From: a virus
Lineage: Duplodnaviria > Caudoviricetes
Length of the DNA stretch: 55,611 bases
Virus record (IMG/VR): IMGVR_UViG_3300035670_000261
Coordinates: 1-55,611 of that record
Reading direction: 5' to 3' (one strand)
Shown piece after piece: positions 196 to 18,796 of the stretch. The notes under the pieces were generated by a model. That model worked only from the letters and a program-made list of their open reading frames with translations, was not told the origin of the DNA and made no database searches. Each line of letters opens with the position of its first letter. The stretch's first letter is position 1. The translations under genes were made by a program, and so were the position numbers.

Positions 196-1191
196 ATACT
201 TGAGTCTGATGATTACGACCCGCCGCCCAACGATCTCAAGGGCCTGAAGACGATTCAAAATAACATTCTGTGCGGGTTTGTGGGCAATAGACTTTTCTTC
301 TCAGAACCAAATAAGCCGCATGCTTGGCCGTCTGATTACGAGAAGGTAGTCGATTTCGATATCGTAGCCGTCGAGCCTATAAGCAGCATTGGCGCAATCG
401 TTCTGACCAAAGGCTACCCGTATCTAGTAGATGGTAGCGATCCGGCTGTTCTAACTATTCGCCGTGTCGACGCGCTGTATCCATGCGTAAGTTCTAAAGG
501 TGTGGTGCCAATGAGCTATGGCATCATCTACCCGACGTACGAAGGACTAGCTGTATACTCCCCAACCTCCGGACCGAGGCTTATTACAGGTGCGCTATAC
601 GAACAGGATTCATGGTCGCTGTCATTCGACCCGAAGACGGTTGTCGCGACTTACTATAACGACAGTTATCTTGCTTCGCATTCAGCTGGCGGATTTGTAT
701 TTCAATTCGACCAGCAGACGGGCGGCATCTTCGTCGACATTGACCAGACGTTTGTGGCCGCTCATGCGGATAGTCTGAATACAAGGGTCTTCTTTGCGCA
801 GGATAATACCGGTAACGTATATGAGTGGGACGATCTTTCGCAGCCAAGCCAGATTGCAGAGTGGAAATCCAAAGTCCTGATAACCAAGGATTACATAAAT
901 CTAGGCGCTGCCAAAATTATAGCTGATTACGGAAGTACTCTTCCCACCTGGGATTTGTGGGATACAAACTGGGAAAATAACACCACGACTACCTGGGGCG
1001 AGGCGACTAATCTTACGTTTAATATGTGGGCTAATAAGTCGCTTGTGTTCTCTACTACTGTAACATCTGGCCAGACGTTTAGATTACCTACCGGATACCG
1101 CACCGATACTTACGAAGTTGGTGTCGTTACACCGGTGCGCGTACGCTCTATTCATCTGGCCGAAACGCCGCTTGGCCTGAAAGAAATCTGA
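1..1191 (+). CDS. 3' part of tail nozzle / tail tubular B-like protein (joins 54160..55416; about 815 aa total)
   Basis: Frame is continuous across the overlap (55417-54160 = 419 codons); beta-rich sequence with LFFSEPNKPHAWP and WKSKV motifs typical of podoviral nozzle proteins. Confidence 0.8.
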   Translation, partial: GGVVKDIVDRYTFDYIQGSSVVAETTDLAGVLYHDAAESNDEPAFYWGDTTYDFTDSFNSRYLNTILESDDYDPPPNDLKGLKTIQNNILCGFVGNRLFFSEPNKPHAWPSDYEKVVDFDIVAVEPISSIGAIVLTKGYPYLVDGSDPAVLTIRRVDALYPCVSSKGVVPMSYGIIYPTYEGLAVYSPTSGPRLITGALYEQDSWSLSFDPKTVVATYYNDSYLASHSAGGFVFQFDQQTGGIFVDIDQTFVAAHADSLNTRVFFAQDNTGNVYEWDDLSQPSQIAEWKSKVLITKDYINLGAAKIIADYGSTLPTWDLWDTNWENNTTTTWGEATNLTFNMWANKSLVFSTTVTSGQTFRLPTGYRTDTYEVGVVTPVRVRSIHLAETPLGLKEI

Positions 1192-1553
1192 TGGCTACTC
1201 GAACTCCACAGCGTCTGTTTGGCGCGCTGCCACAGCTACCGACAACTGATAATGTTGCCTTGAATCAGTGGTGCAGTGCCGTGACGCAGCAACTCCGGGT
1301 GCTGACGGCCAACGCTGGGGATAACGCCCTTCCGGCAAGAGCAATCGTGCGAGCGGACGTTACGGTGGCCGTACCCGAAACTACAATTAAAGCATGTAGC
1401 GCCACGGGTAGCGCGATCAATATAAGCGGTGCTTTGGCGGCTGAAGGTACGGACCATGCGCAGCTTGTCTCCGATGTCAAACAACTAGTAGCCGATGTGA
1501 ATAGACTACAAGCCGCTGTTAAGCTACTAACTAATCAGCTTAAAGGAGCATAA
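1191..1553 (+). CDS. Hypothetical virion protein (120 aa) with C-terminal coiled coil
   Basis: TGATG coupling to the nozzle gene; lies in the late operon. Confidence 0.7.
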   Translation: MATRTPQRLFGALPQLPTTDNVALNQWCSAVTQQLRVLTANAGDNALPARAIVRADVTVAVPETTIKACSATGSAINISGALAAEGTDHAQLVSDVKQLVADVNRLQAAVKLLTNQLKGA

Positions 1554-1555
1554 TC

Positions 1556-2413
1556 ATGGGTATTACTCCTATCTCTCTTACGCAACGTGTTCAAGCTGCT
1601 CGGGTAAGGGCCGCACCTGCTAATGTTGTGGCCGGGTCTAACAATGCTGGAGTCATTAGACCGCCGACTATCCCTGGCTCTCCGGTGCCCCGCTCCGGCG
1701 GTGTTATGCCAGAAGGTGGCGCAGCTGCTTTGGGAGCCATGATGCCAAATCCGTTTAGCAATCTGGCCACGACGTCTATGTACCAGCAACCGGACGTATC
1801 GCAGATTCCTATGGGCACGTTCCAAGAGGGCGGCTTTGTAGGTCCGGGTGGTATGCCGATGCAAGGTGGTATGCCAATGCAAGGTGGTATGCCCCAACCG
1901 GTGCAAGCTGGTATGCAGATGCAACAAATGCCGCAGATGCAGCAACAACCGCCTATGAACCCGCAAATGGTTCAGATGCAGGTGCAGGAAGCTATCAACA
2001 ATAACCCGCAGACAGTGGCCCAAGTTAGGCAAGCCATTGAGCAAGCCATGGCCAGTGGTGAACTGACTGCGCAAGAACTCCAGCAGGCAACTGAGTTAGC
2101 TACGCTGGTGCTAAGCAATCCTAGTATGTACCCACAAGTCCGCGCCTTCGCTATTCAGAACGGTCTGGCTGGCGAAGAAGATTTGCCGATGGAGTACGAC
2201 CAAGGACTGGTTATTGCTCTGCTTATCGCAGGCAAAGTTATGCAAACCGGCGGCATGCAGACGTTTGAATTTGGCGGGCAGGTCGCCGGGCAGATGAATT
2301 CCCCGGTGCCAATCATGGCCCATGAAGGCGAGTATGTAATCCCTAAAGAAGTTGTTATGCGTAAGGGCACGGATTTCTTCGATAAAATGGTAGGTCCGAA
2401 GCAGCCTAAATGA
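1556..2413 (+). CDS. Putative internal virion protein, M/Q/P-rich, with FxxGG motifs
   Basis: AAGGAG RBS; GGMPMQ repeats; C-terminal VPIMAHEGEYVIP motif seen in phage virion proteins. Confidence 0.65.
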   Translation: MGITPISLTQRVQAARVRAAPANVVAGSNNAGVIRPPTIPGSPVPRSGGVMPEGGAAALGAMMPNPFSNLATTSMYQQPDVSQIPMGTFQEGGFVGPGGMPMQGGMPMQGGMPQPVQAGMQMQQMPQMQQQPPMNPQMVQMQVQEAINNNPQTVAQVRQAIEQAMASGELTAQELQQATELATLVLSNPSMYPQVRAFAIQNGLAGEEDLPMEYDQGLVIALLIAGKVMQTGGMQTFEFGGQVAGQMNSPVPIMAHEGEYVIPKEVVMRKGTDFFDKMVGPKQPK

Positions 2414-2880
2414 CAAATGAAACTGTAGATACCCAAGTAGACTATGAGCCAATACTGCTTGGAACGCAGGAGCTACTTAACTATTACTGGCCCGCAATAG
2501 CATGGCAGCTTGAACGCTGTGTAGATAAAACCATGCGCGGCGAAGTAACGGTCGAAGATATCTATGACGCTGTTCTTAGGGCTGCAGCTGTTCTGTTTAT
2601 CGTCGGCAGAAAAACTGAAGAAGGGCCGGACGTTAAACTAGTCGTAGTGCTTGAGCCGGTAATTTATCCTCGCTTTCAGGCTATGAATATACTAGCATTG
2701 GCCGGTGAGAACCTAAACGATTTGCACGACCGCTATTGGAAAGCGCTGTGCGGCTGGGCCTACATGAACGGGGCCAGAGCTTTCGAAGGTTACGTATCCC
2801 CCGCTATGTTTAGGATCGTAAATAAATTCGGTTTTCATCAGGATAGTATATTTATCCGAATGCCCCTGACGGGAGAGTGA
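2410..2880 (+). CDS. Putative acetyltransferase (GNAT)-fold virion-associated protein
   Basis: ATGA overlap; C-terminal WAYMNGARAFEGYV...KFGF pattern; position just before the ejection genes, as for T7 gp13-like genes. Confidence 0.55.
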   Translation: MTNETVDTQVDYEPILLGTQELLNYYWPAIAWQLERCVDKTMRGEVTVEDIYDAVLRAAAVLFIVGRKTEEGPDVKLVVVLEPVIYPRFQAMNILALAGENLNDLHDRYWKALCGWAYMNGARAFEGYVSPAMFRIVNKFGFHQDSIFIRMPLTGE

Positions 2881-2881
2881 A

Positions 2882-4096
2882 ATGCACATCCAGTACGTCG
2901 CGCCAGCTCCGGGGGAGTACCCCGAACTGACCGAAGAGGCTTCAGGCAAGGGGCTGAAAAAAGGCCTTGGCGCTATTCTAGGTGTCGTGGTTAGCGCGTT
3001 TATCCCTGTAGTGGCTCCCCAGATTTTTGGCGCTCTCACTACTTCGCTGGGTCTTAAAGGCGCATTAGGGGCCGCCCTCACTAGCACGGCAGGAAGGGCT
3101 ATTGGAAGCGCACTGACAGGTGCTGTCCTCGGCGGCGCAACGAGCGCTCTTACCGGCGGTGACTGGCGTCAAGGTGCTTTGATGGGGGGCATCGGTGGCG
3201 GACTCGGCGGGCTGCGGGCTCCTATAGCTAGACCTGTCGCGGGGCCAACTCCAGGTCTTCCTCTTAAAACAGCGGGTATAGCGCCGACATTGACTACTTC
3301 TCCAGTGGCAGCGCCGGGTCAGCCGGGTGGTGGACCCATTGATCTCACGACGCCGACGGTACCGGATAGTAAATTTGCTAATATTGGTACTATCGACGGT
3401 GTTACTAAGGCCCAAGATATTGCTAATATAGCGGCAGGTAAAGGCCCGGTTGCCGCGCCTGCTCAAGCTCCGGTGGCTGCGCCTATGAGTACAACTGCTA
3501 GAGTAGCTGCACCGGGCGTCGGAGCAGGAGGCGGTATTACCGAACAACTTACCGGCGCTCTTGGGAGAGCGGTTCCTAATATTGTTGCAGGCGTAGCAGC
3601 TCAGTATTCTGGAGCGGCGGAAGAAGCCGAACTTGCACGAAGGTCCAGGGAAGAACAATACCGCTTGGCGCAACAAGCTTATGCTAGACAACAGGAGCTG
3701 GCTGCAAAAATCAGGGCTCTCGGCGACCGAAATGATCCTGAAGCACTGGCGACGCGTGCTGCTGTCCAACAACAATTAGCAGCGTTGAGAGCTACCCAAC
3801 AGACTGAGCGCGAATTCGCAGGTAGAGGGTATAATGAAGAACGCCTCAGAGGTATTCGGCGTCGTGGTAAACTAGCCGGAGCACGAGCCGCAGGACTTGG
3901 CGCAACGCAAGCAGCTGCTGGGGGTTCAGCGGCACAAGCGCAAATATATGGAACCGCCGCAGGACTATATGGCCAGACTCCACCTGCGTATGAGCCGACG
4001 CAATCAGTTAGTAATGTCGCCGGCAGCCTTGGCAATCTTGCTGGCGGGTTGTTTTACAATACAAACCAACCGGGCAATTTGTGGGGAGGGGGGTAA
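2882..4096 (+). CDS. Putative DNA ejection / pilot protein
   Basis: GGGAG RBS; Gly/Ala-rich hydrophobic N-terminal helices, coiled-coil C-terminal half. Confidence 0.6.
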   Translation: MHIQYVAPAPGEYPELTEEASGKGLKKGLGAILGVVVSAFIPVVAPQIFGALTTSLGLKGALGAALTSTAGRAIGSALTGAVLGGATSALTGGDWRQGALMGGIGGGLGGLRAPIARPVAGPTPGLPLKTAGIAPTLTTSPVAAPGQPGGGPIDLTTPTVPDSKFANIGTIDGVTKAQDIANIAAGKGPVAAPAQAPVAAPMSTTARVAAPGVGAGGGITEQLTGALGRAVPNIVAGVAAQYSGAAEEAELARRSREEQYRLAQQAYARQQELAAKIRALGDRNDPEALATRAAVQQQLAALRATQQTEREFAGRGYNEERLRGIRRRGKLAGARAAGLGATQAAAGGSAAQAQIYGTAAGLYGQTPPAYEPTQSVSNVAGSLGNLAGGLFYNTNQPGNLWGGG

Positions 4097-4099
4097 ATC

Positions 4100-5830
4100 A
4101 TGGCCAACTTTATCGATTACCTCGGTCTTACAGCCCCTGGCGTAATAGAAGGACGAGCAGCTAGACAGACTGAAGATATCAATCGGCTCCGTATTGCGGA
4201 GGCACAGCGCGCTGCGCGCCTAGCTGCACAAACCGAAGAGATGAACGCGGCGATTGCGCGGCAACTTCAGCCTATGAGTCTAGGAGGTCTACGCCAGCCG
4301 CAACCCGATGAAAGCCGGTATACCGCTACGCTGACTGAAAGGCCTGCTGCGGATACTGCGCCGGCTACTGCGCCTGCTGCAGCTACTGCGCCGGCTATTG
4401 CGCCTGCTACTGCACCTGCTGCGGCTACCACGCCTGCTGCGCTTTTTCGGTTTGGCGGGGCAGAAAGCTGGCGATTTGAGCCGCCGCAAGAGCCGGTACA
4501 GCCAGTGCGAGAACTAACGGCTTTACAAGCAGTGCGGTACAACAGATATCGCGAAGCGTTCCGACAATACGCCCTCGGTGAAGCAAGTATAGAAGTCGTA
4601 CGTCGAGCTAGAGATGCTGCAATACGTACCGGCGCTATAACTGGTACACCGTCTGCGGGTGAAACAGTCCGAGAGCGGCGCAGAGGCCGTATTACTGCTC
4701 CGCTTATTCCTGAATCACAAGCCCCCGCCGCTGCTCCCGCTGGCAGCGTGCTCCCAACTGCTAGTGATATAGATTGGCAAAACATAGGCATACAAGGGTT
4801 TCGTCTTACAGAAGGTGTACGCCAAGAAGGTGAGCGACCACAGGGCGGCGCTCCGGCTTCGCAGCATTATATGTCGCAGGGCGGCACTGCTGTAGATTTT
4901 AATATCGGCCCGCCGGGAAATATATTAGTACCGAATGCACAGCAAGAGGCGCAGATACGCCAGCAACTGGCAAACCATATTGGCGTGCCCGTTGAACAGC
5001 TTCGCGGCGGTTTTACGCAGCGAGGGACTGCACCACATTTTCATTATGAATGGGGTCCGCAGAACGGGCAAGCAGCACGAGCCGGACTAAGTGCTGCAGC
5101 AAGTCTAGCCACCTCTCCTATTTCGCAGCCATCGGGGGATGATGAGTCCGATCTTGCAACGCTTCGGTTTAGAGGAGCCAACAATATAATTCCGCAGGGC
5201 ATGCAGTTTGCGGATATGCAGGCTAATGCTTTAGCGCAAGTATACAACACGCTGCTATCTTATGGGCGTGGAATGGAAGCCCTTGGCGTGCTGGATCAAA
5301 TGGCGCAAGCGCATAATCAGATCGAAGCCTTGTCTCTTGAACAAGATGTTTTTGCAGCAATTGCCGGCGATCTTCAACCGCTGGCCCAACGACTGGCTAA
5401 CGCTACACAGTCTAATATTGAGGTTAGTGATAACGGCGACGGTACCTACACGTTCTTTCAAGACAACGAAGAAGTAGGCACAGCCACAGCCTCGCAATTT
5501 ATCACAATGTCTAGAGCTTTGTTGGACCGGCAATTCAGACAAACTCAGGCTGAAGTCGCTGCCCAACGTGCAGAACGACAAGCAGAACTCGCTGGAGAAC
5601 TGCAACTAGCTTATTTAACCGGGGCGATAGATATAGAAGAAGCACGTATTCGCGCTGCTGCCGCGCAAGGCGGATTTGAAATCACAGATTTTACAGACGC
5701 CGAGGGAAATACGGTAGTAGCAGTTATCGATAGAAGAACCGGACGTACAGTAAGGGTTGATAGGTATGGCGAAGTGCCCGGTCCACGCGGCACAAGTACG
5801 TACGGCGTAACACAAATTCCTGCGGGTTAG
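4100..5830 (+). CDS. Internal virion (ejection) protein with a peptidase M15-like Zn motif
   Basis: LTEGVR...SQHYMSQGGTAVDF...PHFHYEW; Ala/Pro/Thr linker repeats. Confidence 0.6.
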   Translation: MANFIDYLGLTAPGVIEGRAARQTEDINRLRIAEAQRAARLAAQTEEMNAAIARQLQPMSLGGLRQPQPDESRYTATLTERPAADTAPATAPAAATAPAIAPATAPAAATTPAALFRFGGAESWRFEPPQEPVQPVRELTALQAVRYNRYREAFRQYALGEASIEVVRRARDAAIRTGAITGTPSAGETVRERRRGRITAPLIPESQAPAAAPAGSVLPTASDIDWQNIGIQGFRLTEGVRQEGERPQGGAPASQHYMSQGGTAVDFNIGPPGNILVPNAQQEAQIRQQLANHIGVPVEQLRGGFTQRGTAPHFHYEWGPQNGQAARAGLSAAASLATSPISQPSGDDESDLATLRFRGANNIIPQGMQFADMQANALAQVYNTLLSYGRGMEALGVLDQMAQAHNQIEALSLEQDVFAAIAGDLQPLAQRLANATQSNIEVSDNGDGTYTFFQDNEEVGTATASQFITMSRALLDRQFRQTQAEVAAQRAERQAELAGELQLAYLTGAIDIEEARIRAAAAQGGFEITDFTDAEGNTVVAVIDRRTGRTVRVDRYGEVPGPRGTSTYGVTQIPAG

Positions 5831-5834
5831 TATC

Positions 5835-7139
5835 ATGGATGACAGATTTAATCTCAGAGAGTTTTTGTTTCCGACGAGCCGCGTGAACCAGCGAGAAACA
5901 GAACGAGCCGTCGAGCGCGAACAAGCTGTTGCAAGGGAACGGCAAGGGCTTCCTTCTTTGGAAAGTTTGCGCGCACGCATGCCTGCGTCTGACCCAAGAT
6001 TTGCTAGTACTTTTACGAATTCGCAGCTGCGCGATATGGGTTTTACACCCACTGAAATAACACAGATTTTAAATCAAGGGGTTGCCGGGGGTAGGTTTGG
6101 TAATATGCCAAGCCCTAGACTGCAAGCCACGCCGGCAAGACCGAATACTGATAATACAAATATGCCGGCGAGTACGTTTCTAAACGCACGTCCAGAGAGT
6201 GACGCGTATAGAAGAGTAGTCGGAGTCGCGCAAAGGGCCGATACAAATACTGATATACCACCAAGTATGGCGGCTGCTTTAGATACGCCGCAAGTTCAAA
6301 GCTATATGGCTGGCGTATCACGCGGGTATCGCCCAATGCCCCCGGAGAGAGCTACGGCTTATTTAGCAACAAGCGGAAATCCCAGCAATCTTAGCTACCC
6401 CAATACTCTTTCTGATGATGAGCTAAGGCAAGCCGGTTTTGGTAGAACAGAAATAAACTTGATAAGACAACGAGCCCCGCAGCAAGAATTTATATCGGGG
6501 CGGAATCCGAGGGCAGGTGTAAGAATAGAGCAGGTAGCTTCTCGCGGAAACGTAGAACCTGTATCTATGTCCCCTGTTTCGGCGACTACAGCCCGAGCTA
6601 CACCGGGATACCTTGATATGGTTGCTCAAGCATTTGATCGTAGGCAGCGAGAATCGAGAGATATAATACCTAATGCAGAACTAACCGGCCCTAGAGCTGG
6701 TTACAGAACCCGTGCGATGTCAGAAAGCTTAAGGCGCGGTGGGTATGGTGCTGAGTTGGGTGGGTTTCACGAGCAAGGTCGTGCGTGGGATTTAAGATAC
6801 GTAGATAATAATGGAGTGGAGCGCCCGTGGACAATGCGTCGGGTTAACCAAGCAATACAGGACTTTGAAAATAATACCGGGCTACGTGTGATAAGACCGC
6901 AACAAACAAATGTACCGGGTCAAATAGGCGTAGTAGAGACCGAAAGTACTTATGTAAGCCCTGTCCATGGACAACTTCATTTGGTTTGGGAGCTGCCGGA
7001 AGAACGCACAAGCTTAGAAGGATTCGGTGCAATTGGGTCTATCGAAGACCCGCGTATAGCATTACGCACAATAGGGCTTGCTGGAAGTCCGGATGTACGT
7101 GCACAAATAACTAGTTCGCAACCGGCTCGACCGCGATAG
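5835..7139 (+). CDS. Internal virion protein with a C-terminal peptidase M15-like motif
   Basis: AGYRT...FHEQGRAWD (H-x6-D)...HGQLHLVWE. Confidence 0.55.
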   Translation: MDDRFNLREFLFPTSRVNQRETERAVEREQAVARERQGLPSLESLRARMPASDPRFASTFTNSQLRDMGFTPTEITQILNQGVAGGRFGNMPSPRLQATPARPNTDNTNMPASTFLNARPESDAYRRVVGVAQRADTNTDIPPSMAAALDTPQVQSYMAGVSRGYRPMPPERATAYLATSGNPSNLSYPNTLSDDELRQAGFGRTEINLIRQRAPQQEFISGRNPRAGVRIEQVASRGNVEPVSMSPVSATTARATPGYLDMVAQAFDRRQRESRDIIPNAELTGPRAGYRTRAMSESLRRGGYGAELGGFHEQGRAWDLRYVDNNGVERPWTMRRVNQAIQDFENNTGLRVIRPQQTNVPGQIGVVETESTYVSPVHGQLHLVWELPEERTSLEGFGAIGSIEDPRIALRTIGLAGSPDVRAQITSSQPARPR

Positions 7140-7148
7140 GAAATAATA

Positions 7149-10100
7149 ATGGCAAGAGAACCTAGATCATCTGCGTTTGCGAGCCCAACGCTGCAAGCGA
7201 CTGGCTTAGGTTTACCTAGCGATCCGTACAGTATGTTCGATACGTCGACTACTGATATCGGTATGGCCGGACTTCGTACTGAGTCTATTCCTGACTATGC
7301 TGGACTTATTCGCCAGCAAGGGCAGGCGGCTATTGATAGTTTCTCTGCGCCGATGGCGAACACTGGATCACAGCTATCGCCTAGTATCTTCTATAGCCCG
7401 TCCACGCGCCGGCTTAATGTCGGCGGCTTTGAGTTTTCTGAAGAAGACGCGGCAAGCGCGCTTCAGTCCGAGCAATATCTAGGCCGACCGGCTACGCCAT
7501 CTGCGGAAGCAACTGACTGGTATGCGCTCCCTGAAAGTGCGTACTCTTCGTACATCGAAAGCGTGCGTAATCCAACGCGTGGCGAGTTGTTTAGCCGTGG
7601 GTTCCAGCGTGGCGTGCTGGGCATGCAGACACTGCTAGGTTCGGGGCTGCAATTTGCCGGTGCCGAAGAAGCCGGTGCGGGACTTGTTTCCGATGCAGCG
7701 CGCCAGCTGCAAATGTATGAGCCGTATCAACGGCAGTTCACAGACATCGACGATCCAAGCGAAGCAATCGACTGGGCAGTATCCTCTTTCGGTGAGCTGC
7801 TTCCGAGCGTGATTGAGTCTGGTGCTGTCGCTCTTGGTGGCTTTGCTGCCGGTACTGTTGGCGGCGGTGGCAATCCTCTCGTTGGCGCTGGCGCTGCTAT
7901 CTCTGGACTAGTTGGTCGACAAGCGTGGAGGCAAACCGCGCTTCAAGCTGCGCGTACATATGCGGCGCGGCGCGCTGCAGGCGATGCTCCACGGGTAGCG
8001 CTGCAAGCTATCGGTCGAGAAGGTCGAGACGCATTGCGCCAAGCGTCAGCACTGGGTGCGCTGACGGTCAACAATTATATGACCGGTGTAGCAGATACTT
8101 ACAACGAGCTGCGCCAGAGCGGTGCTGACCCTGCTGACATAGAAGCTCGCATGTTGTCGGCCTTCGCAGGTATTCCTTACGCCGCTTTCGAGACAGTGCC
8201 AGAAGCGTTGTTGATGGATCGCCTGCTTGGCGGGCGCTTCCTGTCTAACTTCCGTGGCCAACCACTTCGCCGAGTTGCTGCCGGCGCTGGTGCTGGTGCG
8301 GGTATCGAAGCTCTTGCTGAGGCTGGGCAAGAAGCCACTGTGCTTGGCGCATCGTCGCTGTTTAACAATCGCGAATTCCTCACTGACGAGAACCTTGCGC
8401 GGCTTGTGAATTCTGCTGCCGCTGGCGCTCTTGGCGGCGCGATCTTCGGCGGTATCGGTGGTGTCACTGCGCCATCTGATCCTGTTGATGTTCTCAACAA
8501 TCCGTCGCCTCCGCCACCTCCGCCGCCTCCATCTGAACCCGGCCCTGGCATGGGCGGCTTTGAGTTTGAACAGCCTTTTCCTGTCGAACCGCCGCCTCCT
8601 CCGCCAGAGCCTTTTGTGTTTACGGGCGATGTAGCAGAAGCGCCGACCGAATTTACCCCTTCGCCTGGATTAGGTATGGCTCCCGGTGCTGCGCGTTTGC
8701 GTAGAGCCGCTGCGCAACCAACTGCACAACTCGATCTGCGCCGGCCACTGAGGACCGGTGAAGGCCCCGGACTTCCGCTTGAACCTCCTGCGCAGCGCAC
8801 TGCTGAAGGCTATTTTGAGCAACGACCTGATATTCAGGTGGAGCAGTATTACCAAGGAGTCGACCGCAATAATCTCTACCGTGGTGATGTATCGCCACGC
8901 GAAGCTGCGATACCGCCGAGAGGAGCAGGAGCGCTACGAGCTGGGCCTAATCGCCGTGGGGGTACGGTTGTAGCTATTCCTCCTGCTACGCAGCCAAGGC
9001 AAACGGTATCGGCAACGCCGGAGCCTACACCTACGCAAGTAGCTCCGTTATCTATTATTCCATCGCCGCCGATCCCTCCTCCACTGGGTATGAGGCCGAC
9101 CACTATTAATCTTCGTCGTGGTAGGAAGCCCGCGACTCCTAGCGGCAAACAGCGTATCAAAAAAACCGTGGCGCTGAAGCCGGAATACTTTACTGGCCGT
9201 ATGCCGCAGGCTGTCACAGACTTTAAAAACGAGATCGAAGCCACGCCAGAAGCAGAACGTTCGGCGATCCAGCTCGCGTGGCTTGGAGATTATGACCGCA
9301 TGGCGGCGGAAGCTGCCGCACAACAAGTACAGGAAGGAGAGTCGAATGCCGCTCAAGAGCCAAGCCCAACGCAGGTACCTGTGGGCGAACAACCCGAAGC
9401 TCGCAAGAGAATTCGAAGAGGCAACGCCAAACAACCGGAAGCTGCCGGAGCGCGTGACGAAGGGCAAGCTGAACCGGAAATCAACGAAGAAAAAGTAGTA
9501 GACGCAGTTATTGCCGCGTCTCAAAAAGCCGAAGGAAAAGAAAAAGAAGCCGCATTACGTTCTATGCGCGCTGTGATCTCCAGTAAAAAACTAGGATTGA
9601 CCCAAGCCGAAAAAGACGAGGCGGCCCGCCGATTAGGTGTACCGCCAATGCAAACACCAGAGGCACGTGCTGCCAGGGGTAAGGCGTTCGTAGACCAAAA
9701 AGCACGGGCTGCGGCACTTTGGAACGATGTGTCTAACACTGCTTTTATCAAAGCAGTAGACAATGTATCGCGCGCTAGGAACGATGAGTCGCGCGCAAAA
9801 GCGCAAAACGAACTCATAGATTTTATTCTACAGAACAAAGATTTTGTGGATGCGTGGGCAACGCATTACAAAGGGCCGGATGGTAAGCGTCGCAAACGTA
9901 GAGAAAACCAAGCTGATATTATTCAAGCCACACTGGAAGAAATAAATCGCAGGGAGAACATCAAACCTGCGCCGCCAACTCCGGATGCACAGCGCCCACC
10001 GCTTAATTATGGTGTGGCGCGGATGTATATCCAGCGCTTGGTCAGTAAGATCAGTAAGAACCTGCGCAACCACATTGGTGTCCACCGTAACTGGGATGAC

Positions 10101-13100
10101 GCATTGGCGTCTATGACTCCGGCACAGCGCGATATCGCTCAACAACTGCGCCAACGGGAGCCGCGTACGCCAGCGTTTACGCTGAGCGGCGGGCGCATGT
10201 TCTTCATTACGGATAACCTTACAACCAAGCGAGAGCTTGCTGTTGTCGTGGCCCACGAAGTAGTAGGTCACTATGGGTTCCTTAAGTCTGTGGCTAGCGC
10301 TGATGGTTCGCGCCTGAGAAATAAGCTCGATGAACTCTACAATAAGTCTGCTGATATTCGCGACCGCGCCGATGCTATCATGGCGGGAACGCGTGCTAAG
10401 GATAAGTACGAAGCCATTGAAGAAGCACTAGCCGACTACGCTGGTGAGACTGAATTCAATCTGTTCCATCGTACTATTAGCTGGTTCAAAAACCTGCTGG
10501 GCAGAATGTTTGGCATTGAATTCGAAGACGCGCTTGTCGAAGCTACAATTCGCACGGCTCGCATGTACGCCAGAATGGATGTGCCTACAGTCCAAGGACC
10601 ATTGGACGAATATATTCGCGCTGCACCAGCGGCGACGGGTAGTGCAGCCACTGCCAATCCAAATGCCGGTATGTATACCGCTATCGCGGAAGCGGCCCTT
10701 CCGTTTGGCGGCGGCGTAGGCGGCGACAATTCTGGTACGCTTGGATTCCTCGGCGCAATGCGCGACCGGATGGATAAGACTGAGCTGGGGAATAATGTTA
10801 GCGCTATTCTTCAGCGCTTTGTCCGCACTGTGCAAGATGCCGGTAATAAATCGCCGATGATCGCAGCGCTAGCCGGTGTGTTTCGCGACACAGCACAAGA
10901 GAAACTATCTCTTGTTAGAGATGTGGATAGAATTCAAGACCTTATCGGAAAGATATCTGTTTTTGGCGGCGGCGGTCTGACAGATGCGCAACGACAAGAA
11001 GTATCCAACATCATGGGTGCAACACACGATGCGTTTATTCGTAGGTACGCTGAAGAAGCTGATAATCTTGAAGAAGCGCACGGACCGCTCGCTATTATCA
11101 AACCTAATGGCGATATCGAGATTAACGAAGCTGCGTTCGAGGCATACGAAACCTTCGGCACAATGACGCCAGATGAATTGAATGCTGGCTTCGATACGTT
11201 CTACGCGGACGGCACGAAGAACTATTCGTTCAACAAGAAAGACTCTCCGGTTAAGTTATCATCGCCGATCACTGGAGCAGATGACCCACGTTATCAAGCC
11301 TATGTAGAAATGCGTAGAGCTAATAACTTCATTGCTCGCAAGCGACTGGAGAATCTGATCGAAGGTTTGGGTGGCGGTCTTATCGAGCAAGGCGACCGCA
11401 TTCTGAATAACCATTCGTTCAGCCGTGACATATCTAACGATGATGCTAAGTGGTTGGCTGCGGTTGGTCGCTACTATCTCACGCTGCGCGGGCAAGATGT
11501 CACTGCTGAAAATCCAAACCCGGCAAGCCGTGCAGAAGAGTGGCTGGAATCTATTCTCCAAGTAATGCACGACAACCAGTTTGCAAAAGCGTGGATAGAT
11601 GGCACCGCAAGTGATGCGGACTTAGCGGCTAAGCCGCGCCTAAAGTATGCGGTCGATCCGGATATTCGTAAGTCTATTACCAAGGATATCATCGCTGGTA
11701 TTCCGGGTATTAGATCGCTCAAGCCTACTCGCGAGCAGCAATACGATATCCTCGGCTCTCTGCGCCGCCAGTTGCTTGGCATAACGGATATCAAAGCAGA
11801 AGACGCCAGAGCTAGGCAGACTATTGCCGGTGGGTATTTCGGCAAACAACGCGAAGGCGACTGGATGATCCGCATGTCCATGCGCTATGTGGACGGTCCT
11901 AATGCCGGACAGTTCGTCGTTATGCCAGCTGAGGTGCGTGAAAAACTTCCGTTTATGATGACGCGCACACAGCCAGAAGCTTTGGCTGAGGCTACTAAGA
12001 TCACCGAGCAATTTGGCGACGACTTTGATTTTGTCGAAGACAGTGGCGCTACGCGTAAAGTTAAGTTCGTCCCTATCGTAGAACGTGCGGCTAAGACCGC
12101 CGGTCTTGCTGAGATGCCATCGATCTACGTCGTTCGTTCAGTTCTTGAGCGACTCGGTGTGAACCTCAAGCCCAACGATATTGAGAAGTTGGTTATCGGT
12201 TTGACTAAAGCCGGTGATCGTGCACGTAAGACCATGCTGCAATACAGCGGCACGCCGGGCTGGGATAAGGACGTTATCAAGAGCAACGCCAACTGGCAGG
12301 TCAACAATACTTCGTTGGCCGCTAAGATGAAATTCCGCTGGCAGTTTGATAACGCACTGGATAACCAGAGTCTGCGTAGGGGTTCAATAGAAAAACTTCG
12401 TGAGCTTGAAGCGGCCCATAAAGCTGCAACGAATGTTGCGCAGAAAATGGAAACCAGGACCGCCCTATTGCAGTACCTGCGCCAGTACGCAACGGTAGCG
12501 CCGATTGAGGTGGGAGCGGATACGGTAACTGTAGAGGTTGATGGTAAACCAGTAACGCGGCGCTTGGAGGGTCGAGCCGAAGAGTTTAATGAGCTGGCTA
12601 AAAATCTAGTTCGTTTCTACACCACCCGCCGCGACGTCGTTGAAGATATCGATAGTTACTTGGAGCAATTCACAGGGCCGCTTCGTTCGTTTGCGGCTAT
12701 TATGTTCTTGGGTGGCACATTCTCCAGCGGTTTTATACAGTTGTTCTCGCTGTATACATCGTTTGCGCCGTACATGGCTGATATTAATTCGCGCACTGGA
12801 TATGGTGGGGGATTCGGCGACGGTCGTGTCATGGCCGAGATGCATTCTATCATAGCTAAAATCGGAAGCCCGACGTTCGGGGCTGACGAAATCTTCCAAA
12901 ATATCTATGACAAAAAAACTTGGGCCTCTCGCGGACTGAGCGAACGGCAATCTCTTTTTATGAGTGAAGCAGAGCGCGGCAATAATCTAGGCGCGTCTAA
13001 CATACTTACTCTAATGGGCCAGACTAATAGCCCAAATATGAGTGTGCTTACTCGCAAGTTTATCGAAAAGTGGATGTCGCTGTTCGTCGCTGGCGAGCAG

Positions 13101-14303
13101 TTCAATAGGCGTGTGGCGTATCTCACTGCCTATAACCTATATTCAGAGCGGCTTATCGAAGCCGGGCTTGATCCGGCAACGCTCACCGATAAGAATTCTG
13201 ACGCCTTTAAATCTATTATGCGAGAGGTGGAGAAAGCTGTAGACCAGAGCCAGGGTCAATACGCTCTATGGAATAGCCCGGAATTCTTCCGTGGTCCGCT
13301 TGGTCGTGTCGTCTTTATGTTTAAGATGTTCCCGGTCACGGTCGTGCAGCTCATGGGCAACGTATCCAACCGCCAGAAAATCCAGATGTTGGCGCTGCTG
13401 TTCTTGCTCGCCGGACTGAAGGGACTCCCGTTCGCAGAAGACCTTATGGATATCATAGATGGTATAATGCAGCGCTTTGGAATTCGCCAAGCCAGCGTCG
13501 AGCAGGCGCTTAACGAGTTTGTATACGACACTGCTATACTGCTTGGAGCCGACGAAGGGACCGCCAGTACCGTTACCATTGGTGTTATGCGTGGCTGGCT
13601 TGATGTTATGATCGGTGGATCGTTCTCGCCACGGCTGGGCTTGGGCGATCTCATTCCATTTACCGGACTGCTGCGCGAAGGCGTCGATGTCGGGCGTGAA
13701 TTTGAAAGCGGCTTCGGTCCTGTGTGGGCTGCGATGACCAGCCTTGTTAATTACGGTGGGCTGGCTGCCGATCTTGGGCTGCAATACACCGGCTTTAAGG
13801 ACCGCACGGGCGATCTGTCTCAGCTTATCCGCGAGTCGCCATTTGCTGGTATACGCCAGCTGGAAGCGCTTATGTGGGGCATGGATGGCGAGGTAACAGA
13901 CAAGCAAGGCCGTGTCGTATTTGACGATGTGGGTGCTAACACGCTAGCTCTGCGCGCCCTTGGTTTCTATCCCGCTGAAGCTACCAGGGCTAATGACATC
14001 GTGCGGCTCGGTCGTTACACAAGCGACTACGTTAAGCGGATATCTGCCAGTTATCGCAATGCTTGGTCAGATGCTCGCCGCCGTGGCGATAGGGAGCGCA
14101 TGCGTGAAATCGAACGGGCTGTGAGGGAATGGAACGCGGCGGCAAGGCAAGAAGGCAACGAGGATTATATCATCGAAGACTTCCGTGCCCGCGCTATGCG
14201 CTCATCTGAAGAACGTATGCGTGGTACTGTCGAGCGGTACCAACGCACAACGGATTTGGAATCGACAGAACGTCTGGCGCAAGTATATGGGCTGGAAGAT
14301 TAG
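7149..14303 (+). CDS. Giant internal virion / polyvalent-type protein (2384 aa) with a zincin-like HExxGH motif
   Basis: AGGA RBS; hydrophobic Gly/Ala-rich N-terminus, Pro-rich linker, AHEVVGHYG...EEALAD motif, C-terminal region with FMFKMFP/GLKGLPFAEDL resembling large podoviral ejection proteins. Confidence 0.8.
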   Translation: MAREPRSSAFASPTLQATGLGLPSDPYSMFDTSTTDIGMAGLRTESIPDYAGLIRQQGQAAIDSFSAPMANTGSQLSPSIFYSPSTRRLNVGGFEFSEEDAASALQSEQYLGRPATPSAEATDWYALPESAYSSYIESVRNPTRGELFSRGFQRGVLGMQTLLGSGLQFAGAEEAGAGLVSDAARQLQMYEPYQRQFTDIDDPSEAIDWAVSSFGELLPSVIESGAVALGGFAAGTVGGGGNPLVGAGAAISGLVGRQAWRQTALQAARTYAARRAAGDAPRVALQAIGREGRDALRQASALGALTVNNYMTGVADTYNELRQSGADPADIEARMLSAFAGIPYAAFETVPEALLMDRLLGGRFLSNFRGQPLRRVAAGAGAGAGIEALAEAGQEATVLGASSLFNNREFLTDENLARLVNSAAAGALGGAIFGGIGGVTAPSDPVDVLNNPSPPPPPPPPSEPGPGMGGFEFEQPFPVEPPPPPPEPFVFTGDVAEAPTEFTPSPGLGMAPGAARLRRAAAQPTAQLDLRRPLRTGEGPGLPLEPPAQRTAEGYFEQRPDIQVEQYYQGVDRNNLYRGDVSPREAAIPPRGAGALRAGPNRRGGTVVAIPPATQPRQTVSATPEPTPTQVAPLSIIPSPPIPPPLGMRPTTINLRRGRKPATPSGKQRIKKTVALKPEYFTGRMPQAVTDFKNEIEATPEAERSAIQLAWLGDYDRMAAEAAAQQVQEGESNAAQEPSPTQVPVGEQPEARKRIRRGNAKQPEAAGARDEGQAEPEINEEKVVDAVIAASQKAEGKEKEAALRSMRAVISSKKLGLTQAEKDEAARRLGVPPMQTPEARAARGKAFVDQKARAAALWNDVSNTAFIKAVDNVSRARNDESRAKAQNELIDFILQNKDFVDAWATHYKGPDGKRRKRRENQADIIQATLEEINRRENIKPAPPTPDAQRPPLNYGVARMYIQRLVSKISKNLRNHIGVHRNWDDALASMTPAQRDIAQQLRQREPRTPAFTLSGGRMFFITDNLTTKRELAVVVAHEVVGHYGFLKSVASADGSRLRNKLDELYNKSADIRDRADAIMAGTRAKDKYEAIEEALADYAGETEFNLFHRTISWFKNLLGRMFGIEFEDALVEATIRTARMYARMDVPTVQGPLDEYIRAAPAATGSAATANPNAGMYTAIAEAALPFGGGVGGDNSGTLGFLGAMRDRMDKTELGNNVSAILQRFVRTVQDAGNKSPMIAALAGVFRDTAQEKLSLVRDVDRIQDLIGKISVFGGGGLTDAQRQEVSNIMGATHDAFIRRYAEEADNLEEAHGPLAIIKPNGDIEINEAAFEAYETFGTMTPDELNAGFDTFYADGTKNYSFNKKDSPVKLSSPITGADDPRYQAYVEMRRANNFIARKRLENLIEGLGGGLIEQGDRILNNHSFSRDISNDDAKWLAAVGRYYLTLRGQDVTAENPNPASRAEEWLESILQVMHDNQFAKAWIDGTASDADLAAKPRLKYAVDPDIRKSITKDIIAGIPGIRSLKPTREQQYDILGSLRRQLLGITDIKAEDARARQTIAGGYFGKQREGDWMIRMSMRYVDGPNAGQFVVMPAEVREKLPFMMTRTQPEALAEATKITEQFGDDFDFVEDSGATRKVKFVPIVERAAKTAGLAEMPSIYVVRSVLERLGVNLKPNDIEKLVIGLTKAGDRARKTMLQYSGTPGWDKDVIKSNANWQVNNTSLAAKMKFRWQFDNALDNQSLRRGSIEKLRELEAAHKAATNVAQKMETRTALLQYLRQYATVAPIEVGADTVTVEVDGKPVTRRLEGRAEEFNELAKNLVRFYTTRRDVVEDIDSYLEQFTGPLRSFAAIMFLGGTFSSGFIQLFSLYTSFAPYMADINSRTGYGGGFGDGRVMAEMHSIIAKIGSPTFGADEIFQNIYDKKTWASRGLSERQSLFMSEAERGNNLGASNILTLMGQTNSPNMSVLTRKFIEKWMSLFVAGEQFNRRVAYLTAYNLYSERLIEAGLDPATLTDKNSDAFKSIMREVEKAVDQSQGQYALWNSPEFFRGPLGRVVFMFKMFPVTVVQLMGNVSNRQKIQMLALLFLLAGLKGLPFAEDLMDIIDGIMQRFGIRQASVEQALNEFVYDTAILLGADEGTASTVTIGVMRGWLDVMIGGSFSPRLGLGDLIPFTGLLREGVDVGREFESGFGPVWAAMTSLVNYGGLAADLGLQYTGFKDRTGDLSQLIRESPFAGIRQLEALMWGMDGEVTDKQGRVVFDDVGANTLALRALGFYPAEATRANDIVRLGRYTSDYVKRISASYRNAWSDARRRGDRERMREIERAVREWNAAARQEGNEDYIIEDFRARAMRSSEERMRGTVERYQRTTDLESTERLAQVYGLED
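9346..9498 (+). CDS. Nested (overprinted, +1 frame) 50-aa basic protein MPLKSQAQRRYLWANNPKLAREFEEATP...
   Basis: AAGGAG 6 nt before ATG; resembles small phage proteins of the MP(F/L)KSxxQRRxxWAxxP type (from recall, unsearched). Confidence 0.65.
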   Translation: MPLKSQAQRRYLWANNPKLAREFEEATPNNRKLPERVTKGKLNRKSTKKK

Positions 14304-15807: not shown

Positions 15808-15971
15808 TTTTTATCTCTTCTGTTTGCTCTATACGTTACACCAGCTACAATACCGATTGATACGCCTAGCTCTTTAGCAATGCGCCCGAAGGATTTACCT
15901 TCTTTGTATAGCTTAACAATTAGCGCATTTCGATCAGGATGCATTTCTTTCTTATTGCGCCTACGGATCAT
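15783..15971 (-). CDS. Small HTH protein, GcrA-N-terminus-like
   Basis: LIVKLYKEGKSFGRIAKELGVSIGIVAGVTYR helix-turn-helix. Confidence 0.6.
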   Translation of the reverse strand: MIRRRNKKEMHPDRNALIVKLYKEGKSFGRIAKELGVSIGIVAGVTYRANRRDKKWAIKANP

Positions 15972-18796
15972 TGGACCACCTTTAGTTTCGTGAGAAGCCC
16001 GGCTTCGAAGGCTTCCTCCGTATCGTTGAGGATATTCGCAAGCCGTTGCGTATTCAAGTCAAATCCTAATACGTACGATTGTCCTGTCTTGATCGGCGTA
16101 TCTTTTCCGAGACTCACCTTGTCATACGGTGGGCGCACGACTGCCTGTGCGCTGTCCATGTCCTGCGCAAATGTTTTGTAGTCTGCATTGATCGACGTAA
16201 GCCAACGGCGGAAGTGCGTGCGGTGGATATACATAATACCCTTGGTAAATTTAGATGAGGCGGTGGGCCTATAAAGTTCGTAGCGAATACGCACATCGCT
16301 GCGCGGAATGCGGCTGAAATCTGCGACGCCCTTGCCGGTTCCGGTATAAGTAACCGTAACTGCTGCGTCTGCGTTGTCATTGATATAGTCAGCCAGCAAA
16401 TCGAACGAGTCTGACTTATTTTCAGCCACTGACTTGCGGATTACTCCAAGCTGCGCGAGAGCCCATTGAGTGCCAATAGCATAGTCATACTTCAACAATC
16501 CAAGCCCGGCTGCAATCTCCGAAGCAAAGTCTTGGAGTAACACAGCTTGTTCCCAGTATCGTTCTTGTCCGGAAAACTTTGCTTTGTATTTGGTTGCGAA
16601 CCTAGCCTTGTGGTCATCGAGCATCGACCTAAGTTGTTCTTCTCCGAGTCCGATTATATGCTTTATGAACTCACGACCAACCAGTCCGTAGTTGCTGGTG
16701 ATATGTTTGTACATAGCCGCACCGGCGTTAGAGTTAGCAACAAATAGTTTATTGCTGGTTATAGTAAGCTCAAGCAGTCTCGCGACTTGCGCGTCAGTGT
16801 CATAGCCAGAAGTAAGAAGCTTTGATTGTAGCGACTTGTTGGTCGACACGATAACAGGAAGCGCCCATGTCTTCGGCGACCGCTCATCTGCTGCGCGGCT
16901 AAGCCTAGCCTTATCCTTACCCTGTGATACCCAATACAGAAAGTCTCCGATCTGGCTATCGTCCATCATGGTAGCTTCATCGATTGTCATAGGTAAGTTA
17001 GCGTACAAACCCATACGATGGAACAATGCGTTCTGTGTATACTTGGCTCCGTAATGCAGCTGATCTGGATTACCCCAGATAGACTGCGCCCATAGTTGAG
17101 CTAGAGTTTTGCCCGATCCTGTTGGACCATAGAGAGAAACGGTCATACCGCGAAGGCCGGTCAGCGCAAACAGCGGTGCCGAGAAGCTCATCCCAAGGCA
17201 GAACATATGAGCCGGCATGTTTGCTTTTTCTAGGATGGCGGTGCCGTCAACCCATACATCGCGTGTACCTGCCGTGGTGAAATAGTCCACGCTAGACAAG
17301 GAAGATGTAGCAATAGACACCTTATCTTCGACGACGGTCCCGCTCTCATCTGCGTGTATGACGGTATCGCCCAAGACGAATTGTTTGTAATTATCCTTCC
17401 AACCCATAGAAGAATATAGATTGGTCAGGTCTTTGACCCTACGAAGCTCCTCCATGTATGATCTAAGCATAAGCTGGAAATACTCCGTTACTTTCCTATT
17501 ATATAGCACGATGCCTTGGTCTGCTATAGTAGTAGAAAAATCTTTCATAAGAGATTCAGTTAGATATGCCTGCCGAAACTTAAGCTCGACCCACCCACGA
17601 TGCGGGCGCTTCCAATGGTACCGAACGACTTCATAGCCGGCGACTTCATCAAGCCCATAGCTCACGGGGTAAATTTCAAACGGACAGATATCGATATCCG
17701 TCTCGTCTACAGTAAGTTTCATCCCTGATTTGGTACGCTTGAATGGTGCTGGTACAGGTATGTCGTGCGCCATCTGGTCAGGCGCATCCGGAGCCGGCGG
17801 TGCTTCCTGATACTCTTTGCCGAGCTGCACGGGCGACGTAATGTTGCCTTTGTACTTACAGCTTTTGCATCCATCTGGATTAAGAGAAGCAAACTTTTCG
17901 CACGTTGTAGGTCCAGTTACCTTGGTCTTCCATTGACTAAGTTTCTTTAGGGTATCGATCTCACTGAACTCAGGATGCCCCTTGCTCCACTCGATAGCTG
18001 TTTCTTCTGGATTGGTTGTATAGGCCGCTACTCCGAGCAGCGCATACCACAATGGTTCGTCTACATTTTCTGGGTTCTTTATAGCCGCCGCGACTTGTCC
18101 GCACTTTGTAGCTACTGCATTGGCGCGTGCCTCCGGCCAATCTTGATTAACAGCGAGGTTGTTAATCAACGTGCTAGTGCGCTTCGGCTTCGGTGTTACT
18201 AGCTTAGCAATTACATCTGGGTCGCATGGCGGCGCGTCCAGCAAAACGGTTACTTCTCGCTCTCCGCTATCGCTAATGTGATATGTACCTGGGGCGCGGA
18301 GCACTCGCGCCGAGTCTCCAGTTACTGCCGGGTCGGCTACAAGTCCATGAGACTGCCATAATTGTTTGAGTGCAGCGGCAAGCGGCATCCATTCTTCGGG
18401 CGGAAGCGGGCGAGTTAAAACCCAATAGGCATGGAATCCCATGCCTGATGACAGAATCATCGGCATAGGCAGGCCTGCGGCCTGCACGAAATCATGTATA
18501 GCTTTCAGCGCTTCCTTGCGCTTGGCGTAACTATTGCGTGGCTTACCGACGTCCACATCGATAGCTAAAATCTTAGTATAATATACGTTCTCTTGCTTGC
18601 GGCCTTTGTTTAACTTAAACGAAGAGATCGCATAGTACGCGTTTAGTTTTTTGTTGCTTAGGATTTGCAGAAAATCGGACAGGTCTTCGCGCGTGGAGAA
18701 AAAACGAACCTTACCGCCTTCTGGTAAGACGGTGAAAGCTGCGTAGTAGCCATCATCGGGAAGAACGCGCCGCAAAAATTCCAGCGTGTTCATCAT
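15968..18796 (-). CDS. Primase-helicase (AEP/RepB-type primase plus DUF927-type ATPase)
   Basis: DVD, SSGMGFHAYW and RVLRAPGT primase motifs; Cys cluster; Walker A GPTGSGKT; Walker B TIDE. Confidence 0.85.
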   Translation of the reverse strand: MMNTLEFLRRVLPDDGYYAAFTVLPEGGKVRFFSTREDLSDFLQILSNKKLNAYYAISSFKLNKGRKQENVYYTKILAIDVDVGKPRNSYAKRKEALKAIHDFVQAAGLPMPMILSSGMGFHAYWVLTRPLPPEEWMPLAAALKQLWQSHGLVADPAVTGDSARVLRAPGTYHISDSGEREVTVLLDAPPCDPDVIAKLVTPKPKRTSTLINNLAVNQDWPEARANAVATKCGQVAAAIKNPENVDEPLWYALLGVAAYTTNPEETAIEWSKGHPEFSEIDTLKKLSQWKTKVTGPTTCEKFASLNPDGCKSCKYKGNITSPVQLGKEYQEAPPAPDAPDQMAHDIPVPAPFKRTKSGMKLTVDETDIDICPFEIYPVSYGLDEVAGYEVVRYHWKRPHRGWVELKFRQAYLTESLMKDFSTTIADQGIVLYNRKVTEYFQLMLRSYMEELRRVKDLTNLYSSMGWKDNYKQFVLGDTVIHADESGTVVEDKVSIATSSLSSVDYFTTAGTRDVWVDGTAILEKANMPAHMFCLGMSFSAPLFALTGLRGMTVSLYGPTGSGKTLAQLWAQSIWGNPDQLHYGAKYTQNALFHRMGLYANLPMTIDEATMMDDSQIGDFLYWVSQGKDKARLSRAADERSPKTWALPVIVSTNKSLQSKLLTSGYDTDAQVARLLELTITSNKLFVANSNAGAAMYKHITSNYGLVGREFIKHIIGLGEEQLRSMLDDHKARFATKYKAKFSGQERYWEQAVLLQDFASEIAAGLGLLKYDYAIGTQWALAQLGVIRKSVAENKSDSFDLLADYINDNADAAVTVTYTGTGKGVADFSRIPRSDVRIRYELYRPTASSKFTKGIMYIHRTHFRRWLTSINADYKTFAQDMDSAQAVVRPPYDKVSLGKDTPIKTGQSYVLGFDLNTQRLANILNDTEEAFEAGLLTKLKVVQ

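Follow-up and report, generated by a model that had tools for sequence, protein, structure and literature searches.

A small gene nested in the linker of a giant phage gene

The window analysed here is the complete virus record IMGVR_UViG_3300035670_000261 (55,611 bases; Caudoviricetes). Its + strand contains a giant open reading frame (ORF) of 2384 codons (7149..14303), which is the last gene of the late/structural block on that strand. Wholly within this ORF, on the same strand and in the +1 frame ((9346-7149) mod 3 = 1), lies a second ORF at 9346..9498, which is the arrangement of an overprinted gene. It consists of 50 codons and a TAG stop (9496-9498), opens with the ATG at 9346 and specifies the small basic protein MPLKSQAQRRYLWANNPKLAREFEEATPNNRKLPERVTKGKLNRKSTKKK. 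A Shine-Dalgarno (SD) site, AAGGAG, is located at 9334..9339, 6 nt 5' of the ATG. A preliminary description, made from the sequence alone, had drawn attention to the AAGGAG, the ATG and the 50-codon ORF fully nested in the +1 frame, and had called the peptide basic; the former is borne out by the sequence and the latter by 15 Lys/Arg against 4 Asp/Glu. For the reasons given below, we consider it very likely that 9346..9498 encodes a real protein and is overprinted, in the +1 frame, on the linker region of the gene for a giant phage protein, probably a virion-internal one.

From stop to stop the nested frame is open for 106 codons, which in itself is unremarkable because several off-frame ORFs of 60-90 codons are found nearby and such ORFs are common in this GC-rich gene. 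The start signals are rarer: among the 441 out-of-frame ATGs on the same strand within the 40 main ORFs of the window, only the one at 9346 has both an SD match of at least five bases and an ORF of 40 codons or more. No gene of the window has a better SD than this 6-mer, a length reached in 5 of the 40 genes. The site is mostly unpaired in the predicted fold (structure z = 0.13), and neither a promoter-like site nor an unusual RNA structure was found near the nested start.

The host protein has a conserved N-terminal part (around amino acids 60-430) and a conserved C-terminal part (from around amino acid 810), and at both ends it is homologous to the giant ORFs of the loci L008/L088 and L004 (loci are given by number, preceded by L). 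It matches phrog_11358 (function unknown; E 2e-32) and carries an AHEVVGH zincin-like motif (HExxGH) at amino acids 1035-1041 (window 10251-10271), which does not vary in the three-way alignment; eight consecutive prolines are found in its N-terminal third, around amino acids 452-460. Gene order and the annotations of the relatives suggest that it is a virion protein. The nest is situated in the middle linker between the conserved ends, a region that is unalignable between relatives. The dual-coding part of this linker (9345..9500, + strand; host codons 733-784, frame 0) is acidic and rich in Pro, Gln, Ala and Glu; over the nest the host reads ...ESN|AAQEPSPTQVPVGEQPEARKRIRRGNAKQPEAAGARDEGQAEPEINEEKV|VDAV....

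Relatives and predicted structure of the nested peptide

The nested peptide matches phrog_1375 (PHROGs v4; function unknown) with an E-value of 4.3e-4 and 21.6 bits, its residues 4-50 aligning with positions 18-69 of the 70 in the profile, and the same match was found for 28 of the 54 relatives scanned. A word-indexed search of 5.8 billion proteins yielded three proteins of 41-43 amino acids at 71-86% identity (E 2e-11 to 3e-8). Within IMG/VR, 121 of 139 candidate viral stretches were found to encode a relative, the best 80 of which were analysed further, and a profile of 45 members recovered 3991 cluster representatives at E<=1e-3 and 678 at E<=1e-10 among 1.84 billion. The likeness to free-standing small phage proteins starting with MP(F/L)KS..QRR, which the preliminary description had pointed out, is therefore real, and the absence of homologues, which it had named as a ground for abandoning the gene, is contradicted by the 121 viral loci and the 3991 representatives.

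The family occurs free-standing, as the N-terminal module of longer proteins, or nested. The motif is located at residue 1 in 120 of the 150 best representatives; 65 of these 150 (around 43%) are at least 100 amino acids long, mostly with the module at residue 1. The C-terminal parts of the long proteins are varied and mostly contain nothing recognisable; those that could be recognised include phrog_220 ('minor head protein and DNA pilot')/DUF6321, a ParB-like nuclease, a cupin and HExxH motifs. A further 40 loci that carry the family were recovered from a set with one genome per prokaryotic species, on contigs binned with many phyla. Judging from these searches, the small-protein family is much wider than any single host gene.

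The conserved core comprises residues 1-36 (9346..9453), with the MPxKS.AQRR motif, two predicted helices and a TP..KLPE motif. Over 45 sequences M1, S5, Q8, P17 and A20 are invariant and L12 and P34 nearly so. AlphaFold2, run on the 45-sequence alignment, gave a mean pLDDT of 77.7, with block means of 84, 92 and 81 over residues 1-30, and predicted helices at residues 6-15 and 17-26 with the hinge at the invariant Pro17. The Lys/Arg-rich tail that follows (residues 37-50; 9454..9495) is predicted to be disordered (block pLDDT 73 and 59, no secondary structure), and its length and sequence vary between homologues. A search with the predicted fold in BFVD returned only uncharacterised small phage proteins, among them A0A6J5L1Y8 (TM 0.81) and A0A6J5KN67 (TM 0.75), at 46% identity. 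DUF3008 (PF11450; gathering score 24 bits) was a candidate family, suggested also by a language-model neighbour at 0.86, 15% of whose members carry this domain; it was rejected because neither the peptide nor 44 relatives gave a Pfam match at E<=1, and none was found in the genome at E<=10.

A tblastn search of isolates with the peptide of the window gave weak matches only; the peptides of relatives, used as queries, did match Elemovirus and Streptomyces phages. One weak relative of the module, at 48% identity across 29 amino acids (E 1e-2), is annotated in Streptomyces phage FlowerPower (L163; NC_048706 27334-27552) as the free-standing gene 48, located between a small 'peptidase' gene and a holin gene, a lysis-cassette context unlike the head-module contexts found elsewhere.

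Conservation of the nest in homologous giant genes

Giant relatives were fetched via two C-terminal motifs of the host, and thus independently of the nest; 93 were found and 80 were kept. When six-frame translations of these loci were searched with a hidden Markov model of the peptide, the nested ORF was recovered in 24 of them, and in 22 of the 24 it is located inside the longest open frame at offset +1. In the other two, L139 and L086, the giant gene is split in two downstream of the nest and the nested gene is intact in the first part; the match lies inside the longest frame (1191 codons) in L139 and in a separate 928-codon frame upstream of one of 1964 codons in L086. A set of 44 complete giant genes was formed from ORFs of at least 2300 codons (that of the window and 43 fetched ones). 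Within this set 21 genes carry the peptide ORF in the linker, at host codons around 670-1030 and always in frame +1.

Conservation extends to the signals for initiation. Of the 28 giant-nested copies, 15 have ATG and 13 have GTG as the codon homologous to M1; 26 are intact and encode 42-67 amino acids. An SD match of at least four bases is present between positions -16 and -4 in 27 of the 28 copies and one of at least five bases in 21, compared with 22% and 4.4%, respectively, at random positions within 1.5 kb in the same genes. The check that the preliminary description had proposed thus comes out in favour of the gene: ribosome-binding site, start codon and open +1 frame are conserved at the same linker in homologous giants. 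The outcome that it considered fatal, homologous giants with stops or without a start in the nested frame, is not what is found, as the start is there in 28 of 28 copies and 26 are intact. The presence of this family (hereafter family 1) is clustered on the tree of the giant genes, with at least 7 changes as compared to 14.9 in shuffles, none of 500 shuffles being as low, and carriers are present on deep branches; this holds for a tree from a quick maximum-likelihood search on the C-terminal 700 residues, not for a finished careful one.

Evolutionary constraint on the two reading frames

Given the geometry of the overlap, the third codon position of the nested frame is the first of the host frame and the nested second position is the host third. 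Host proteins were aligned, the codons were threaded onto the alignments and variability was determined per host position, with 28 codons as the nest core. In the L088 clade the variability at host positions 1/2/3 is 0.128/0.101/0.320 outside the nest and 0.345/0.143/0.024 in the nest core; the corresponding values are 0.240/0.185/0.460 and 0.293/0.191/0.188 for Subgroup B, and 0.432/0.378/0.597 and 0.333/0.131/0.065 for the L127 clade. Similarly, in 44 unique marine host genes variability at the host third position, which is 0.3-0.45 along the gene, drops to 0.085 and 0.049 over the first 30 nest codons, and the host first position becomes the most variable one within it. The phase switch is thus present in four independent alignments, and it fades over the Lys-rich tail. 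Since the substitutions gather at the nested third position, the sequence of the linker is dictated by the nested gene, in agreement with the dual-coding locus that had been proposed initially.

The pooled Nei-Gojobori pN/pS over codons 2-28 is 0.38 for the nested frame and 1.71 for the host frame in 18 giant-nested copies, and 0.31 and 2.29, respectively, in 14 free-standing copies; at the amino-acid level the nested frame has a mean identity of 0.63 and the host frame one of 0.33, all of these values being partly conditioned on the peptide similarity by which the copies were recognised. The phase test on the host alignments is free of such conditioning, which has less influence on the counts of SD sites and starts and on the open-frame contrast. 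As to the latter, the host frame contains no stop across the nest in the 28 giant-nested copies and in 7 sampled marine copies, whereas all 14 free-standing copies have 1-6 stops in the equivalent frame. Because the host frame is open in nested copies and closed in free-standing ones, the locus is truly dual-coding. Together, these sequence comparisons show different constraints on the two frames: in the nested frame the sequence itself is conserved, and in the host frame the freedom from stops.

A second family in the same slot

A different small gene was found to occupy the same position in part of the giant genes. L140 is a close relative of L089 (80-84% protein identity outside amino acids 690-905 of L089) that lacks the family-1 peptide, and its different linker holds another +1-frame ORF (L140:4299-4478). 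This ORF matches phrog_2423 (E 4e-7) and, below threshold, DUF6496 (E 0.021). An iterated search recovered this family 2 in the same slot and frame of 14 giant genes (L087, L099, L100, L105, L106, L111, L114, L118, L120, L123, L140, L146, L155 and L156), and not in the window. All 14 copies have an SD match of at least four bases. The family begins with MPLK.GKS, and the 13 copies listed (L106 is not listed separately) start with ATG or GTG and encode 47-60 amino acids. Variability at nested positions 1/2/3 is 0.30/0.21/0.50. Of the 44 complete giants, 21 hold family 1, 11 hold family 2 and 12 hold neither. The two families are alike in an MPLK or MPFK start and a basic tail at the end; homology between them was considered and rejected (hhalign probability 15.9%), and apart from the shared MPLK start they were treated as unrelated.

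The clearest comparison is between L088 (family 1; 8800-9560) and L087 (family 2; 2-700). Their flanks are 91% (239/263) and 94.5% (242/256) identical, as opposed to 41% (73/180) from just after the GTG-CC of the nested start to the nested stop. The nests differ in length by 9 nt, so that the host frame is kept, and on the basis of this alignment we interpret the difference as a precise cassette replacement that preserves the host frame. As related giants carry an unrelated small basic gene there, the slot seems to act as a cassette site. A screen of the remaining giant genes for ORFs with an SD revealed no third nested family. Two more giants have single SD-led +1-frame ORFs starting with MP (L147:356-505 and L152:1881-1997) that match neither family; these could be further cassette types or chance.

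Distribution and genomic context

Among the 80 IMG/VR loci that were obtained with the peptide, 58 have it fully nested at +1 (5 in ORFs of at least 1000 codons and 53 in ORFs of 250-999 codons) and none has it fully nested in another frame; 13 copies are free-standing, 8 partially overlap a neighbouring ORF and one (L020) is fused in frame to a 1495-aa protein. The 40 genome-derived loci comprise 8 copies nested in the same +1 geometry, none in another frame, 31 free or partially overlapping and one fused. Not all nest hosts are demonstrably homologous. They include the giant family of the window; L023 together with the 3694-aa 'structural protein' gp20 of Flavobacterium phage elemoC; L006; L012, with endolysin and DarB-like parts; and an acidic protein of 402-418 amino acids of marine podoviruses, the gene for which lies between a portal gene (phrog_6547) and one for a virion structural protein (phrog_13704). 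In total 68 Flavobacterium-phage isolate records match. ElemoC, the one inspected, has no annotated nested CDS (coding sequence) in gp20, as expected from the earlier claim that gene callers would miss the gene.

The module is fused in frame to the N-terminus of a longer protein in L020 (L020:6001-10488; 1495 aa) and in L197 (225 aa), a contig of a Prochlorococcus single-cell assembly. We considered whether L020 represents a giant gene that was split at the nest and dropped this idea, as neither the fused protein nor its upstream neighbour has BLAST similarity to the giants. In L057 (5391-6126), L003 and L009 the upstream gene extends over the small gene with its last 20-40 codons, and the two frames are related as they are in the full nests; such partial overlaps may be a stage towards engulfment.

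The neighbourhoods of 14 free-standing or partly overlapping copies were examined. Eight (L005, L007, L010, L013, L014, L015, L044 and L057) have terminase, portal, MuF-like minor head, scaffold or major head genes as neighbours, two (L001 and L002) lie upstream of tail-sheath genes, three (L003, L009 and L019) are in replication modules and one (L039) has an indistinct neighbourhood. In the window itself the late/structural block of the + strand comprises 1-14303 and 34712-55611, with the giant gene as its last. It includes a phrog_511 'internal virion protein' gene upstream of the giant gene (91-1191), a terminase gene (35145-36542) and an SU10-type portal gene (39367-41451), all on the + strand. 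Because the block runs through the record ends, the record is probably circularly permuted. The - strand block (14333-34346) holds a primase/helicase gene (15968-18796). A DNA search of 8000-11000 against isolated phages gave no match, and the window therefore has no close cultured relative among them.

Alternative explanations

Several observations weigh against the interpretation of the nested ORF as a gene with the properties described. Considering the fact that 12 of the 44 complete giants hold neither nested family, the nested gene must be dispensable for this kind of giant gene. Two giant-nested copies are not intact: L124 (L124:12453-12590) has an in-frame TGA after codon 20, and the copy in L012 ends at 33 amino acids. 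L124 is nearly identical to L127, and its TGA, the result of clustered substitutions, could reflect either recent inactivation or a mistake in the assembly. The nested copy of Elemovirus has a poor SD. The branch of the window is very long, and as the nearest giant gene is only 37% identical over the C-terminal 655 columns, the copy in the window is judged through distant relatives. To this can be added the conditioning of the identity and pN/pS values and the provisional nature of the tree, both mentioned above. The match to phrog_1375 is weak, Pfam gave nothing credible for the peptide or 44 relatives, and searches of the PDB by sequence and by fold returned no relative of the peptide. Finally, the case for a translated product is a case from sequence comparison, the functional assignment proposed below is a guess from gene context, and within that context the three copies in replication modules do not fit a head module.

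The simplest alternative would be a chance ORF, that is, a GC-rich low-complexity linker that happens to be open in a second frame, with a peptide that is never made. The frequency of 60-90-codon off-frame ORFs in the giant gene fits this idea, as does the comparative nature of the evidence for the peptide. It does not account for thousands of homologues that share the same Met start, for a start and SD kept in 28 diverged giants, for the phase switch to the nested frame with a pN/pS of 0.38, or for the single ATG out of 441 with such signals. In our assessment the homologues, the conserved start signals, the selection and the maintenance of both frames exclude a chance ORF, to which we assign virtually no probability. 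A related proposal would be a relic, in which a once free-standing gene was engulfed by the fusion of its flanking genes and is no longer expressed or needed. A family that is wider than any host indeed fits engulfment, and the 12 giants without a nested gene and the premature stop in L124 are compatible with loss of function. Yet nested copies that have diverged to a mean identity of 0.63 have retained start, SD and frame, and within three giant clades the slowest site is the nested second position (host third), from which it follows that the selection is current; moreover, in a swap that coincides with the ORF borders the nested ORF is exchanged as the functional unit. A relic therefore has a slight chance.

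Two other models retain a functional sequence and explain the arrangement differently. In a recoding model a +1 shift from the giant ORF would produce a truncated giant protein with a basic tail, or a start at 9346 followed by a -1 shift would fuse the module to the C-terminal 1600 amino acids. In-frame fusions of the module as in L020 and L197, the 65 of 150 best representatives of at least 100 amino acids, mostly with the module at residue 1, and the slippery-like end of the ORF in the window (G-AAA-AAG-TAG) could be taken as indications. The copy in the window, however, has no canonical X-XXY-YYZ heptamer, nor do the 28 nested copies share one at a fixed position; runs of Lys codons are equally common in free-standing copies, which end at comparable lengths, and a shift from host to nested frame does not need a conserved SD and start at M1. 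We give recoding a very slight chance. The remaining model holds that there are two genes with a small gene in between and that the continuity of frame 0 across 9345-9500 is accidental. The position of the nest, exactly between the conserved N- and C-terminal parts, and the split of the giant gene downstream of the nest in L086 and L139 would suit such an arrangement, but frame 0 is free of stops across the nest in all 28 giant copies and all 53 mid-sized hosts, as opposed to 1-6 stops in 14 of 14 free-standing copies, and in the window no SD plus start for a second half was found after the nest. Its chance is minute. The overprinted, independently started gene thus remains the preferred interpretation.

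Expression, function and origin

If the nested ORF is indeed such a gene, it would be transcribed within the long late mRNA, as no promoter-like site was found nearby, and translated independently by internal initiation at AAGGAG-N6-ATG. The product would be a basic protein of 50 amino acids with a predicted N-terminal two-helix hairpin and a disordered Lys/Arg tail. Purifying selection acts mainly on the nested frame; the host frame need only remain open and specify a linker that is tolerant, acidic and disordered. The host reading of the linker is probably younger than the nested gene, and would have arisen when the small gene was engulfed by the giant gene. The +1 frame may be favoured because Lys runs (AAG AAG) that are read one base earlier give Glu (GAA GAA), which suits an acidic disordered linker.

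As to function, gene context suggests a small basic protein associated with the head or virion and made together with internal or ejected proteins, in which the N-terminal module would serve as an anchor in the head or on a partner and the tail would bind nucleic acid; this is a rather doubtful proposal. Somewhat better, although still tentative and short of an even chance, is a more general scenario in which the linker of giant virion/polyvalent genes and the portal-adjacent, mid-sized gene of marine podoviruses constitute a hidden accessory locus. This locus would offer a fixed +1 slot, equipped with a ribosome-binding site of its own, to a minimum of two unrelated small basic genes (phrog_1375-like and phrog_2423/DUF6496-like), which would replace one another as cassettes, precisely from start to stop, with the host frame simply reading on across them. 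The small gene would be the older one, having been engulfed, and the cassettes, maintained as a population polymorphism, could be functional analogues, for instance partners of the giant protein, co-packaged or injected with it, that associate with DNA or serve in counter-defence.

Relation to known systems

The lambda o-spanin Rz1 is embedded in the i-spanin gene Rz; this lipoprotein, which has a signal sequence and a lipobox Cys, is encoded in the lysis cassette, and its host is a membrane protein of 150 amino acids. The nested gene of the window resembles Rz1 in being a small gene wholly inside a larger phage gene, on the same strand, in the +1 frame and with its own start, and in being of a kind that gene callers routinely miss. 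Unlike Rz1, the nested peptide has no Cys and neither a signal sequence nor a hydrophobic N-terminal stretch, and its family is also found free-standing and is probably older than its hosts; unlike Rz, the host is a protein of 2384 amino acids at the end of a structural block, without a lysis context.

Other classical examples of overprinting are found in phiX174, with E in D, and B and K in A. The dual coding, with one frame dominating the constraint and the other specifying a disordered or tolerant segment, is shared with the overprinting of small viruses. In those cases it is the novel, overprinted frame that is taxonomically restricted and disordered, whereas here the nested frame is widespread and ordered and the host linker is tolerant and apparently younger. 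In addition, a double-stranded DNA (dsDNA) phage genome of 55.6 kb is under no obvious size pressure, unlike the genomes of small viruses, the overprinted genes of which are treated in two reviews (PMC8227390, PMC3494269). Members of phrog_1375 and the 44-aa proteins of uncultured Caudovirales in BFVD, which are uncharacterised, are encoded by genes annotated as free-standing, in contrast to the nested copy of the window, and no function is attached to either.

The host protein itself recalls the giant head-internal proteins of the polyvalent/Dar type, such as DarB of P1, which Iyer et al. are said to have described in 2017. Like these, it is a multi-kilodalton, multi-domain protein from the structural block with a HExxH-type motif. 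Among the relatives, L012 has a match to phrog_10089 ('DarB-like antirestriction') and, like the protein of the window, one to phrog_11358; the protein of the window may belong to the polyvalent/Dar class. A literature search at abstract level yielded no description of nested genes in proteins of this type, of this nested gene, of DUF6496, DUF3008 or DUF6321, or of Elemovirus proteomics.

The locus represents a widespread, conserved phage gene that is invisible to standard annotation, and as the nested copy in elemoC, the isolate inspected, is unannotated, searches of called proteins under-count the family. The constraint is clearly carried by the nested and not by the host frame, the reverse of the usual picture of overprinting, and the case suggests that overlapping genes of large dsDNA phages can originate when a gene is engulfed through fusion. 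The linker of the giant gene would in addition be a cassette site within a gene, where alternative small genes swap precisely at the ORF borders, and the nested genes may provide access to a group of small basic proteins that accompany giant injected ones.

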